Origin: a virus
Lineage: Duplodnaviria; Heunggongvirae; Uroviricota; Caudoviricetes
Virus record (IMG/VR): IMGVR_UViG_2703719367_000015
Length of the DNA: 4,481 nucleotides
Reading direction: 5' to 3' (one strand)
Shown here: in pieces, positions 31-4,481 of the stretch
Position numbering within the stretch: position 1 is the stretch's first letter
Layout of the letters: each line of letters opens with the position of its first letter
Translations under genes and position numbers: made by a program
The notes under the pieces: model-generated
The model's input: only the letters and a program-made list of their open reading frames with translations
What the model was told of the DNA's origin: nothing
The model's database searches: none

Positions 31-453
31 ATGTTTCTGAAAACAGAACAATTTGAATATAACGGTGTGTCCGTCACGCTTTCCGAATTGTCTGCGCTGC
101 AGCGGTTTGATTATATAAAGTTTGTTTCAGACGCAGAACAACAGGAGACAACGAAGCATGATGTCGTGCACATTAACCAGCGATATCTGGAAACGGCATC
201 CCTGCTTGTGGCGATGTCGCTATGGCATTCCCATTCCCTCAAAGGCACTCTGGCCTCTCCGGAGACAGAGATGCAGCAGATCCGCCGTGAAGTGATGCTG
301 GGATGGCCTGCTGATGCACTGAATCAGGCAACGAACCGGGTGCTTTATCTTTCAGGTATGCTGGATAACCGGCACGATGCCGATCCTGAACAAACCGGTA
401 AAGCAGAAGCGACTGAGTCGGTAACATCAAAAAAGCATTCGAAGGCGAGCTGA
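31..453 (+). CDS. G: Tail assembly chaperone G (lambda gpG family)
   Basis: 140-aa ORF with strong SD. N-terminus MFLKTEQFEYNGVSVTLSELSALQR and the internal ...LLVAMSLWH... motif match my recollection of lambda gpG. Sits immediately upstream of the T frame and contains the slippery heptamer near its 3' end. Stop TGA 451-453. Confidence 0.9.
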   Translation: MFLKTEQFEYNGVSVTLSELSALQRFDYIKFVSDAEQQETTKHDVVHINQRYLETASLLVAMSLWHSHSLKGTLASPETEMQQIRREVMLGWPADALNQATNRVLYLSGMLDNRHDADPEQTGKAEATESVTSKKHSKAS

Positions 454-893
454 ACTTTGTCCTGAAACTGGCGCGAGAGATGGGGAGACCCGACTGGCGC
501 GCCATGCTTGCCGGGATGACATCCACCGAATATGCCGACTGGCGACGTTTTTACTGCACGCATTATTTTCAGGATACCCAACTGGACGCTCATTTTTCCG
601 GGCTGATGTACGCCGTACTCAGCCTGTTTTTTGGCGATCCGGATATGCATCCGGCGGATTTCAGTCTGCTTGCTCCAGCGTGTGAGGAAGAGCAGACGGA
701 GATGCCGGACGAGGAAGAAATGCTGATGCAGAAAGCGACAGGAGTTGCCGGAGGCGTCCGGTTCGGAGGGGACGGAGGGCGCGATATTTCACCTTCTGCG
801 GATGTGGTGGATGTCAGCGAGGATGATGTTGCATTAATGATGGCTTCAGCGGGGATTTCCGGAGGTGTGAGATATGTCCCAGCCAGCGGGTGA
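31..893 (+). CDS. GT: Tail assembly chaperone G-T fusion, made by -1 frameshift (join 31..435, 435..893)
   Basis: Predicted junction reads ...ESVTSKK / AFEGELNFVLKLAREMGRPDWRAMLAGMTSTEYADWRRFY..., which matches the lambda gpGT junction and T portion as I recall them. The T frame has no SD or convincing start of its own. Stop TGA 891-893. Confidence 0.85.
429..435 (+). promoter_or_regulatory. Programmed -1 ribosomal frameshift slippery heptamer A AAA AAG (G to G-T recoding site)
   Basis: In the G frame the codons are tcA AAA AAG (430-432, 433-435). The -1 frame is open from 417 (after TGA 414-416) through 893, and G stops at 451-453, so this is the only X XXY YYZ heptamer inside the 417-453 overlap window. 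Confidence 0.8.
435..893 (+). CDS. T: T portion of the tail assembly chaperone (expressed only as the G-T fusion; automated callers would likely annotate it as 480..893 from the internal ATG)
   Basis: -1 frame relative to G; translation (...MGRPDWRAMLAGMTSTEYADWRRFYCTHYFQD...FSGLMYAVLSLFFGDPDMHPADFSLL...GGVRFG...GGVRY...) is lambda gpT-like with an acidic patch (EEEQTEMPDEEEM). Confidence 0.8.
   Translation, partial: AFEGELNFVLKLAREMGRPDWRAMLAGMTSTEYADWRRFYCTHYFQDTQLDAHFSGLMYAVLSLFFGDPDMHPADFSLLAPACEEEQTEMPDEEEMLMQKATGVAGGVRFGGDGGRDISPSADVVDVSEDDVALMMASAGISGGVRYVPASG
861..866 (+). promoter_or_regulatory. Shine-Dalgarno sequence (GGAGGT) for H
   Basis: GGAGGT at 861-866, 7 nt upstream of the ATG at 874; lies inside the 3' end of the T frame. 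Confidence 0.6.
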
Positions 894-3375
894 TCTGGTT
901 ATTGATTTGAGTCTGGATGCGGCCCGGTTTGATGAACAGATGGCCCGGGTACGCCGTCATTTTTCCAGTCTGGAGGCGGATGCCAGAAAAACCGCCAGTA
1001 CTGTTGAACAGGGGCTGAGCCGACAGGCGCTGGCGGCACAAAAAGCCGGGATATCAGTCGGACAGTATAAGGCTGCCATGCGCACACTGCCCGCACAGTT
1101 CACGGATATTGTCACTCAGCTTGCCGGTGGTCAGAATCCCTTCCTTATCATGCTGCAGCAGGGGGGGCAGATCAGCGATTCATTCGGTGGACCGCTCAGC
1201 CTGCTTACCCTGCTGAAGGAGGAACTTCTCGGGATCAGGGATGCCTCTGAATCATCAGAGGAGTCGCTGTCAGATACGGCAAATGCACTGGCTGAAAATG
1301 CCCGGAATGCCGGTGAGCTGGGACGATTTATGTCGGTGGCCCGTGTGGCGGCAGGTGGCGGGGTTGCCGTACTGGCCGCGCTTGCTGCCGCCGCCTGGCA
1401 GGCAGAGCAGGCTGACCGGGCCTTATTGCGTTCACTGATCCTGACCGGAGGGGCGGCTGCCACCACAACGGCAGAATTGTGGAAAATGGCCGGGGTGATC
1501 AGCGATGAAGCCGGTGGTGGTATCAGACAGGCGGCAGAAAATCTGGCCCGTCTGGCAGAAAGCGGGAAATATACCGCCGGGCAGCTACGGATCATGGGGG
1601 AAACCTCTCAGAGATGGCTGCAGACGGTGGGGGACGATGCCGGGAAGGTGGAAAAAGCCTTTGAAGGGATTGCAGCAGATCCGGTGAAGGCGCTGGCCTC
1701 CCTGAATCAGCAGTATAACTTCCTGAGCGTTTCCCAGTTACGCCATATTGATGAGCTTGAGCGCACGAAAGGTAAACAGGTTGCGGTGACGGAGGCGATG
1801 TCCCTGTTTGCGGATGTCATGAATGCACGTCTGGAGCAACTTGATAAAGCGGCCACGCCGGTGGAAAAAATCTGGGACGATGTTAAAACCTGGACTTCTG
1901 ACGCATGGGCATGGATAGGTGATCATACACTGGGGGCACTCAGTCTGATCACTGACGTGGTGGCCGGAACCGTTGAACAAGTGAAGCTGCTGCTTGTGCA
2001 GGGGGATCTGGCGCTGGCTGAATTTATTCAGTCAGCCTGGGAAACGACAAAGAATGTGCCCGGCGTTGGTGCGTTGTTTGGTGAACTGGCAGAAGAGAAC
2101 CGCGTATTTATTGAGAAAACAAAACGCGATGAACTGGCGCTGAGAAAATCCATTGCGGAACGGGATGCGCGTATACGCCAGGGGGAAATGGGGTACATCA
2201 ACCGCTCGCGTGCAACAGGCGTCAGCAAAGGTCCGGGGCAGCAGGAAGCCGTCAGCCGTCTGGCTGAAGAGCTGACAGGTAAAAAGCATACATCACCGAA
2301 AACGCGCTCTGCCGGGGAGAGGGAAGAGGAGCAGGCAAGAGAGGCTCTGCTTGCCCTTGAAGCTGAGCTCAGGACGCTGGAAAAACACAGCGGTGCGAAT
2401 GAGAAAATCAGCCGGCAGCGCCGTGATTTATGGAAGGCGGAAAATCAGTATGCGGTCCTGAAAGAGGCTGCCACGAAACGGCAGTTATCTGAGCAGGAAA
2501 AATCCCTGCTGGCGCATAAAGACGAGACGCTGGAGTACAAACGCCAGCTGGCTGAGCTGGGAGACAAAGTTGAACACCAGAAACGCCTGAATGAGCTGGC
2601 ACAGCAGGCGGTGCGGTTTGAAGAGCAGCAGAGCGCGAAGCAGGCCGCCATCAGCGCAAAAGCCCGCGGTCTCACTGACCGTCAGGCGCAGCGGGAGTCT
2701 GAAGCGCAGCGTCTTCGGGACGTGTACGGTGATAATCCGGATGCGCTGGCGAAGGCCACATCNNNNNNNNNNNNNNNNNNNNNNNNNNNNNNNNNNNNNN
2801 NNNNNNNNNNNNNNNNNNNNNNNNNNNNNNNNNNNNNNNNNNNNNNNNNATTCACCCGTTCGGTGCTGTCCATGATGACAGAAATCCTGCTTAAACAGGC
2901 CATGGTGGGCATTGTCGGGCGTATCGGCAGCGCCATTGGCGGTGCTTTCGGTGGTGGTGCATCTGCTTCCTCGGGGACGGCCATTCAGGCTGCGGCGGCG
3001 AACTTCCATTTCGCGACCGGAGGATTTACGGGGACGGGCGGCAAATATGAGCCTGCGGGGATAGTTCACCGCGGGGAGTTTGTTTTCACGAAAGAGGCAA
3101 CCAGCCGGATAGGTGTGGGGAATCTTTACCGTCTGATGCGCGGCTATGCGGAAGGTGGTTATGTGGGTGGTGCCGGAAGTCCGGCGCAGATGCGGCGGGC
3201 GGAAGGTATTAATTTTAATCAGAACAATCACGTGGTGATTCAGAACGACGGCACCAACGGACAGGCGGGGCCGCAGCTGATGAAGGCGGTGTATGACATG
3301 GCCCGCAAGGGGGCGCAGGATGAGCTCCGGCTGCAGTTGCGTGATGGCGGTATGTTATCGGGGAGCGGGCGATGA
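874..3375 (+). CDS. H: Tail tape measure protein (lambda gpH family); interrupted by an in-frame masked segment
   Basis: 834-codon ORF (833 aa). N-terminus (MSQPAGDLVIDLSLDAARFDEQMARVRRHF...QALAAQKAGISVGQYKAAMR) and C-terminal third (ALLALEAELRTLEKHSGANEKISRQRRDLWKAE...SVLSMMTEILLKQAMVGIVG...FHFATGGFTGTGGKYEPAGIVHRGEFVFTKEA...) closely match lambda gpH as I recall it. Has the hydrophobic segment, long coiled-coil-like charged region and glycine-rich C-terminal region typical of tape measure proteins. Start overlaps the T stop by 20 nt. Stop TGA 3373-3375. Confidence 0.92.
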   Translation: MSQPAGDLVIDLSLDAARFDEQMARVRRHFSSLEADARKTASTVEQGLSRQALAAQKAGISVGQYKAAMRTLPAQFTDIVTQLAGGQNPFLIMLQQGGQISDSFGGPLSLLTLLKEELLGIRDASESSEESLSDTANALAENARNAGELGRFMSVARVAAGGGVAVLAALAAAAWQAEQADRALLRSLILTGGAAATTTAELWKMAGVISDEAGGGIRQAAENLARLAESGKYTAGQLRIMGETSQRWLQTVGDDAGKVEKAFEGIAADPVKALASLNQQYNFLSVSQLRHIDELERTKGKQVAVTEAMSLFADVMNARLEQLDKAATPVEKIWDDVKTWTSDAWAWIGDHTLGALSLITDVVAGTVEQVKLLLVQGDLALAEFIQSAWETTKNVPGVGALFGELAEENRVFIEKTKRDELALRKSIAERDARIRQGEMGYINRSRATGVSKGPGQQEAVSRLAEELTGKKHTSPKTRSAGEREEEQAREALLALEAELRTLEKHSGANEKISRQRRDLWKAENQYAVLKEAATKRQLSEQEKSLLAHKDETLEYKRQLAELGDKVEHQKRLNELAQQAVRFEEQQSAKQAAISAKARGLTDRQAQRESEAQRLRDVYGDNPDALAKATXXXXXXXXXXXXXXXXXXXXXXXXXXXXXXFTRSVLSMMTEILLKQAMVGIVGRIGSAIGGAFGGGASASSGTAIQAAAANFHFATGGFTGTGGKYEPAGIVHRGEFVFTKEATSRIGVGNLYRLMRGYAEGGYVGGAGSPAQMRRAEGINFNQNNHVVIQNDGTNGQAGPQLMKAVYDMARKGAQDELRLQLRDGGMLSGSGR
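2763..2849. other. Run of 87 N (masked or unresolved sequence) inside H
   Basis: Directly visible. 87 = 29 x 3, and the H reading frame is continuous across it (30 X codons in the ORF track). Confidence 0.99.
3361..3365 (+). promoter_or_regulatory. Shine-Dalgarno sequence (GGGAG) for M
   Basis: GGGAG at 3361-3365, 6 nt upstream of the ATG at 3372; embedded in the 3' end of H. Confidence 0.55.
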
Positions 3376-3701
3376 AAACCTTTCGCTGGAAAGTGAAGCC
3401 GGATATGGAGGTGAACTCGCAGCCATCGGTGCGTGAAGTGCGTTTTGGTGACGGGTACTCACAGCGTATGGCGGCAGGGCTGAATGCTGACCTGAAAACA
3501 TACCGTGTGACGCTTTCCGTGACCCGGGAGGAGGCCCGGCATCTGGAAGCGTTCCTGGCAGAGCACGGAGGCTGGAAGGCATTTTTGTGGAAGCCACCCT
3601 ATGCATACCGGCAGATAAAGGTGACCTGTGCCGGGTGGTCTGCGCGGGTCGGGATGTTGCGCGTTGAGTTCAGCGCGGAGTTTAAGCAGGTGGTGAACTG
3701 A
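3372..3701 (+). CDS. M: Minor tail protein M (lambda gpM family)
   Basis: 109-aa ORF. MKTFRWKVKP...VRFGDGYSQR...LKTYRVTLSV...FLWKPPY...RQIKVTCAGWSARVGMLRVEFSAEFKQVVN matches lambda gpM in length and sequence as recalled. ATGA overlap with the H stop. Confidence 0.93.
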   Translation: MKTFRWKVKPDMEVNSQPSVREVRFGDGYSQRMAAGLNADLKTYRVTLSVTREEARHLEAFLAEHGGWKAFLWKPPYAYRQIKVTCAGWSARVGMLRVEFSAEFKQVVN

Positions 3702-4399
3702 TGCAGGATATTCACGAAGAAAGTCTGAACGAGTCGGTTAAATCAGAGCAGTCACCGCGGGTGGTACTCTGGGAAATCGACCTGACGGCGCAGGGCGGTG
3801 AGCGGTATTTTTTCTGCAATGAGCTGAATGAAAAAGGGGAGGCGGTTACCTGGCAGGGGCGGCAATATCAGGCATACCCGATTGACGGCAGTGGCTTTGA
3901 GATGAACGGGAAGGGCAGCAGTGCCAGACCGTCGCTGACGGTGTCGAATCTGTTTGGTCTGGTCACCGGGATGGCGGAGGACCTGCAGAGCCTGGTGGGG
4001 GCCACGGTGGTCCGCCGCCGGGTGTATGCCCGTTTTCTGGATGCGGTGAATTTTGTGGCAGGCAATCCTGAGGCAGACCCTGAGCAGGAGCTGACGGACC
4101 GGTGGGTGGTGGAGCAGATGTCATCGCTGACGGCCATGACGGCCTCGTTTGTGCTGGCCACACCGACGGAGACGGACGGAGCGCTGTTTCCCGGTCGCAT
4201 TATGCTGGCGAATACCTGTATGTGGACCTACCGCTCTGATGAGTGTGGTTACACGGGCGGGGCAGTGGCGGATGAGTTCGACAACCCCACCACGGATATC
4301 CGTAAGGACAGATGCAGCAAGTGCATGCGCGGGTGTGAGATGCGCAGCATGGTGGCTAATTTTGGCGGTTTCCTTTCCATTAATAAACTTTCGCAGTAA
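3701..4399 (+). CDS. L: Minor tail protein L (lambda gpL family; tail tip complex protein with a C-terminal cysteine cluster)
   Basis: 232-aa ORF. MQDIHEESLNE...VVLWEIDLTAQGGERYFFCNE...VTWQGRQYQAYPIDGSGFEMNGKG...FPGRIMLANTCMWTYRSDECGY...CSKCMRGC...NFGGFLSINKLSQ matches lambda gpL as recalled, with the same length. TGATG overlap with the M stop. Stop TAA 4397-4399. Confidence 0.93.
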   Translation: MQDIHEESLNESVKSEQSPRVVLWEIDLTAQGGERYFFCNELNEKGEAVTWQGRQYQAYPIDGSGFEMNGKGSSARPSLTVSNLFGLVTGMAEDLQSLVGATVVRRRVYARFLDAVNFVAGNPEADPEQELTDRWVVEQMSSLTAMTASFVLATPTETDGALFPGRIMLANTCMWTYRSDECGYTGGAVADEFDNPTTDIRKDRCSKCMRGCEMRSMVANFGGFLSINKLSQ

Positions 4400-4409
4400 A
4401 TCCCGGTTT

Positions 4410-4481
4410 ATGACACAGACTGAATCAGCGATTCTGGCGCATGCCCGGCGGTGTGCGCCTGCGGAGTCGTGCGGCTTCGTG
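4410..4481 (+). CDS. K: Tail tip assembly protein K (lambda gpK family); 5' partial, first 24 codons only, continues beyond the window
   Basis: ATG at 4410, 10 nt after the L stop. Translation MTQTESAILAHARRCAPAESCGFV matches the N-terminus of lambda gpK as I recall it. Not in the ORF track because it is truncated by the window end. Confidence 0.8.
   Translation, partial: MTQTESAILAHARRCAPAESCGFV

Follow-up and report, generated by a model that had tools for sequence, protein, structure and literature searches.

The window, the whole stretch of 4481 nt that was analysed, carries tail genes in the lambda-type order G, G-T, H, M, L, K. The genes are laid out as follows.

31-453, plus strand: tail assembly chaperone gene G (Pfam Phage_TAC_2, E = 6e-35; annotated as gpG in a relative)
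429-893, plus strand: slippery heptamer A AAA AAG at 429-435, followed by the T extension in the -1 frame at 435-893 (putative G-T fusion)
874-3375, plus strand: tape-measure gene H of the lambda gpH type, 833 codons as written (Pfam TMP_2; alignments to lambda H and to the H of relative L003)
3372-3701, plus strand: minor tail protein gene M (Pfam Phage_min_tail, E = 4e-38)
3701-4399, plus strand: minor tail protein gene L (Pfam Phage_tail_L, E = 1e-91)
4410-4481, plus strand: start of gene K (C40 peptidase), ended by the window edge; the C40 family peptidase of the relative starts at L003 6521

The T extension is open in the -1 frame and matches Pfam Phage_tail_T (E = 1e-11). By comparison with the conserved G/GT arrangement of lambda, a -1 frameshift would give the G-T fusion. 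The stop codon of H and the start codon of M overlap in the motif ATGA. Coordinates of locus L003, a near-identical relative, convert to those of the window with an offset of 2111, which places L003 6521 at window 4410.

Both the protein matches and the neighbourhood assign the open reading frame at 874-3375 to the gpH family. Its residues 147-293 match Pfam TMP_2 (PF06791) with E = 5e-46, and the H protein of L003 matches lambda gpH (PDB 8iyk) with E = 2e-249. The gene sits between the G and G-T chaperone genes on one side and the tip genes M, L and K on the other, and it is collinear with lambda gpH, the first 110 and the last 400 residues aligning. Judged from its sequence and its place in the gene order, the frame is a lambda-type tail tape-measure gene, and an earlier note on this DNA had named it correctly as H. 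Lambda gpH itself (NP_040595.1, 853 aa; PDB 8iyk, 8iyl, 8k35) is highly similar to the window H over those N-terminal 110 and C-terminal 400 residues, and differs from it in a divergent middle third, with an overall identity of 53%.

The closest sequence is a lambdoid prophage of E. coli O157:H7 strain 319, which differs from the window at 7 of 4394 comparable bases. Strain 319 belongs to the O157-type genomes at the top of the match list. Its H protein (WP_000081804.1; NZ_CP018241.1 1834839-1837451), annotated as a phage tail tape measure protein, has 870 aa, 17 more than lambda gpH. Like the window, this prophage has G, T, M, L and K as the neighbours of H.

Three features within H bear on how the gene is to be read.

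2444-2741, plus strand: mosaic just left of the gap that accounts for 6 of the 7 mismatches to the closest genome; alleles of other co-resident H copies
2763-2849, no strand: run of 87 N's, most likely standing in for a 198-nt stretch of the relatives and short by 111 nt (37 codons)
2851-2916, plus strand: visible C-terminal 22 residues of the Tape_meas_lam_C domain (FTRSVLSMMTEILLKQAMVGIV...), the same as the residues of the relative

The run at 2763-2849 is the only one in the window and is exactly 87 bases long. On its left the readable sequence ends in ...GCGAAGGCCACATC, and on its right it resumes with ATTCACCCGTTCG... The H frame stays open through the run, and of its 833 codons 30 read as X. 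Although its length equals 29 codons, the run lies out of codon register: it opens on base three of codon 630 (TCN, serine with any base), stops on base two of codon 659 and touches 30 codons. The claim of the earlier note that a run of 29 codons leaves the H frame unbroken holds for the full reading frame at 874-3375.

Both flanks of the run align with relatives to the last base, and between these flanks the relatives have 198 nt, or 66 codons. In the strain 319 prophage the flanks match in the same way, with 198 nt (L003 4763-4960) in place of the 87 N's. We fetched 132 loci in which both flanks align fully, comprising 30 distinct nucleotide variants; the intervening segment is 198 nt in 131 of them and 199 nt in the remaining one. 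Two more loci whose flanks align in part, L020 and L036, also retain the full segment. An apparent 129-nt segment in these two came from projecting the partial alignment and was rejected, as both retain all 198 nt. What L020 and L036 do lack is 23 codons further downstream, in a Gly-rich stretch of H.

The same distance was found in wider searches. Among the matches listed, all 30 phage records and all 30 complete E. coli genomes span the query length plus 111 nt. With the whole window as the query, 24 of 25 complete E. coli genomes among the matches listed span the query plus 111 nt, and one spans it plus 110. An even sample of relatives reaching down to about 85% identity gave plus 111 at 19 of 20 places with two flanks, and plus 110 at one. 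At the protein level, the spacing from DNPxAL to FTRSVLSMM is 71 residues in lambda gpH and in the O157 relative, against 34 in the window. Even a distant tape measure of 957 aa (PDB 9l9p) aligns across the segment without a gap.

A shorter allele was sought directly. The pattern AAGGCCACATC-N{72,102}-ATTCACCCGTTC had no match in IMG/VR, and the same flanks with N{72,102} had two matches in JGI metagenome contigs, both of them unrelated chance sequence. We verified that this pattern also matches literal N runs, so the contig from which the window was taken is absent from both collections. In IMG/VR, exact searches with flanks of 57 and 60 nt were also without a match; in genome_contigs, a flank of 39 nt matched one unrelated MAG contig, and no recorded protein carries the X's. 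The control pattern with N{183,213} matched 70 contigs, all with 198 nt bar one with 199. An allele with about 87 nt between the flanks was found in none of the 134 fetched loci and in none of the approximately 105 E. coli and phage matches listed.

Since all relatives have 198 nt, the N run would be short by 111 nt, barring a deletion confined to the allele of the window. Comparison with these relatives makes it most likely that the true sequence at the run is about 198 nt long, with the 87 N's 37 codons short, and that the real H protein is most likely 870 aa with its domain intact, not 833. The 37-residue shortening is, on this evidence, most likely a data artefact in a well-known gene and not biology. 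The earlier note had put forward as its leading suggestion a deletion of roughly 38 residues in H, which does not agree with the 198 nt that lie between the flanks in the relatives and in lambda. Its alternative, that the N run understates the true length, is favoured by lambda and by relatives whose nucleotide identity ranges between 99.8% and about 85%, all of which have 198 nt. The discrepancy that it saw between the window and the DNPxAL-FTRSVLSMM length of lambda is real, the length in gpH being 71 residues where the note gave about 68; likewise the shortfall stands and its size becomes 37 (71 in lambda less 34 in the window) in place of 38.

The intact reading frame had been taken as a sign of same-length masking. 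That step fails, as the H frame is kept across the 87 N's simply because 198 - 87 = 111 divides by three. An N run that stays in frame is not thereby shown to have the correct length. N runs do not arise by chance. Chance enters here only through the frame, which would survive a gap-length error of arbitrary size with a probability of 1/3.

The residues under the N's belong to a conserved domain. Going by the H of L003, they are residues 631-696, ALKNTRSAEEQLRGSWMAGLKSGWGEWAESATDSFSQVKSAATQTFDGIAQNMAAMLTGAEADWRG, equivalent to residues 614-679 of lambda gpH. Pfam Tape_meas_lam_C matches the L003 protein at residues 644-718 with 73 bits, so the hidden stretch takes in the first two thirds of the domain. 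With about 53 of its 75 matched residues covered by the N's, Tape_meas_lam_C went undetected when the 833-codon product was searched against Pfam. Taken at face value, the window would make a conserved domain seem to be missing. The lambda counterpart of the hidden stretch is the C-terminal end of the gpH* part, and downstream of it come a hydrophobic segment (691-712) and then the Gly-rich region in which gpH is cleaved (PMC12617516).

The genomic setting of H bears on how such a run may have come about. In complete E. coli genomes, among the matches listed, H is found at a median of 2 places per genome and at up to 13, and the O157-type genomes heading the match list have 8-11. Strain 319 has a second prophage whose H (L141) disagrees with the closest copy at 2 of the 198 hidden bases. 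Over the 851 nt downstream of the run, 2850-3700, both strain 319 copies are identical to the window and to each other, and at least three different H genes, two of them in one genome, share this right flank at 100% identity. The paralogues do differ further upstream, at window 2310-2364. The run therefore lies, as a scaffold gap would be expected to, in sequence that is repeated within the genome. It also shares with scaffold gaps the combination of flanks that are collinear with finished genomes and a count of N's that is off, 87 against 198 nt.

The differences from strain 319 are far from evenly spread. Mismatches fall at 2444, 2481, 2562, 2568, 2575 and 2741, and at 4159, and a cluster of six out of seven left of the gap has P = 6e-7 under uniformity. 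Three of the six clustered SNPs change a residue (N524S, H568Y, D623A). Five of the six alleles are those of the same-strain paralogue L141, and site 2504, which is interleaved with them, retains the allele of the first copy. The remaining allele belongs to a third class and is a common one, present in 68 of the 132 loci. None of 5,426 complete E. coli genomes is identical to the window over 2380-2762, the 383 nt upstream of the gap. The mosaic could alternatively be the product of real gene conversion between prophages.

If the run marks a break in an assembly graph, its edges should lie beside sites at which the copies differ. The left edge fits exactly: in three of six same-genome pairs, co-resident copies have G in one and T in the other at the first masked base. 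The right edge adjoins a variable cluster (segment position 178 to the first base after the run) and does not lie precisely one base past a polymorphic position, where the simplest graph model would put it, which leaves a model of two bubbles unestablished. Draft contigs also end near the gap: L008 ends inside the segment, L099 ends 23 nt and L125 30 nt after it, and further contigs end at the window equivalent of 2386-2596. Around the gap, 8 of 29 true ends fall in 13% of the length (P ~0.03), an excess that lends weak support, as presence of the flank was the basis on which loci were chosen, and several of them stop at storage cuts, not at contig ends. The contigs of L063 and L042 end 2-7 nt from the two ends of the window itself.

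Our data support a model in which the N run is, with good confidence, a placeholder of the wrong length and not the trace of a shortened gene, its origin being most likely a sized scaffold gap. Sized scaffold gaps at multi-copy prophage genes in draft genomes resemble the window in having an N length that is not standard, in having flanks that are collinear at the wrong distance and in falling within a gene that is found at 2-13 places in a genome. Gaps of fixed size are not conventionally given 87 N's. The window would then be one of the short scaffolds that a short-read draft assembly yields for an O157-like E. coli carrying several lambdoid prophages. From about 2437 on, the H genes of different prophages in one genome are almost identical, and the assembler would mix alleles of the paralogues, giving the SNP cluster at 2444-2741. 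The contig would break at the first masked base, a site of difference between the copies, and the break would be closed with N's in a number estimated from read pairs. The error of 111 nt in that sizing would happen to be a multiple of three, keeping the frame.

There are several other ways in which the run could have arisen. The two sides of the gap, 2762 bases on the left and 1632 on the right, may have come from different prophages of the same genome, which would make the H frame chimeric. With the right flank at 2850-3700 identical in several H genes, read pairs cannot separate the copies, and the stretch 2444-2741 already combines alleles from more than one copy. Such a mis-join is nevertheless unlikely, if not to be dismissed lightly: the best match to the whole window is a single strain 319 prophage, which mismatches it at 6 sites before the gap and 1 after it, and gene order and frame are intact. 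A mis-join is also compatible with the N's being a placeholder of the wrong length. A second kind of origin leaves the assembly without fault: a data preparer or a collection filter may have put in the N's on purpose without keeping the length, the true sequence again being 198 nt. The genome_contigs collection is described as having a few stretches masked as N runs, and the contig behind the window turned up in none of the collections searched. We consider a purposeful mask improbable, as masking would normally preserve length and 1.27 Mb of related loci from the same collections are free of long N runs. The adjacent allele mosaic, and the start of the run at a base that distinguishes paralogues, also fit an assembly break better than a purposeful mask.

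The N's may instead mask bases one for one, in which case the window would hold an unseen in-frame deletion of 111 nt, with the loss of 37 residues from the Tape_meas_lam_C region and a tape measure of 833 aa. The preserved frame speaks for this, an in-frame length being three times likelier than under an arbitrary gap size, as does the practice of some collections of deliberately masking stretches, since masks normally keep length. The direct repeat GCTGA, 5 nt long, has copies at segment positions 58 and 169, a spacing of exactly 111 nt through which a deletion of this size could have arisen, though we estimate the odds of one repeat this short occurring by chance at a set distance at about 1 in 5. 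Natural in-frame variants of H do exist elsewhere in the gene, namely the 23-codon deletion of L020 and L036 in the Gly-rich stretch, and the unique 383 nt upstream of the gap point to an unusual allele. Against these observations, no relative as short as this was seen in the 134 fetched loci, in the approximately 105 matches listed, or in IMG/VR and the JGI metagenomes; the length of the segment is kept even in lambda and in the distant tape measure; and about half of a conserved domain would be lost. We therefore regard a deletion as very improbable. If it were true, it would be a natural counterpart of the H deletions engineered by Katsura, with 87 nt between GGCCACATC and ATTCACCCG, and the tail would be about 5.5 nm shorter, roughly one tube ring, or the prophage would be dead or defective.

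The preferred reading of the N's as a wrong-length placeholder has a direct consequence for estimates of tail length. The tail measures about 0.15 nm per tape-measure residue, a figure of Katsura and Hendrix 1984 as it is cited in PMC5099701. Tail length scales with tape-measure length, and therefore a calculation from 833 residues would come out about 5.5 nm shorter than one from 870. For any inference on tail length, 870 residues is the appropriate working length. More broadly, the multi-copy lambdoid tail genes of E. coli O157-type genomes are a predictable spot for assembly gaps and for the mixing of alleles.

The tape-measure gene H varies in length among relatives of the window. In two IMG/VR prophage H genes, L020 (about 2409-2938, minus strand) and L036 (about 8493-9022), the 66-codon segment that corresponds to the masked stretch is kept, and 23 codons are absent from the Gly/Ala-rich stretch directly downstream of it (...GSAIGFAGGGFTGTGGK...). 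The two genes represent natural variation in tape-measure length that leaves the reading frame intact. The stretch that is shortened lies near the site at which lambda gpH is cleaved to gpH*. On one further IMG/VR contig (L116, 5982-6203) the segment measures 199 nt rather than 198, the extra nucleotide being either a frameshift or a sequencing error.

Six of the seven differences between the window and its closest genome, E. coli strain 319, are grouped at window 2444-2741, left of the masked stretch. At these six sites the window carries, in alternation, alleles from two or three different H copies that reside together in O157-type genomes, and no complete E. coli genome carries a stretch identical to window 2380-2762. 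This mosaic comes either from paralogues that the assembly collapsed or from true gene conversion among the prophages.

The two ends of the window (1 and 4481) fall within 2-7 nt of true contig ends in independent draft assemblies (the ends of loci L063 and L042). This coincidence suggests that the window represents an entire scaffold bounded by repeats and not an arbitrary cut. Several related IMG/VR loci (L016, L017, L038, L084 and L134) end at window-equivalent 2385-2603, inside H and just upstream of the masked stretch. These loci were cut from the interior of longer contigs, so that their ends are stored ends and not contig ends. If the stored loci are scaffolds split at N runs, draft genomes of E. 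coli would frequently have gaps at this position.

One relative, L074 (SFGJ01000081.1, the whole 2807-nt contig), has about 92% identity to the window's E. coli lambdoid H-M-L region. The contig has been placed in a metagenome-assembled genome labelled 'Clostridiales bacterium', most likely as a binning contaminant.

Two features mark the junction of the tail genes G and T:

429-435, plus strand: slippery heptamer A AAA AAG, read in G's own frame, 18 nt upstream of the G stop
435-893, plus strand: T extension, open in the -1 frame, matching Pfam Phage_tail_T

Together, the heptamer and the open -1 frame make up the predicted site of the conserved G/G-T tail-chaperone frameshift. The heptamer of lambda is G GGA AAG, from which the A AAA AAG of the window's G differs.
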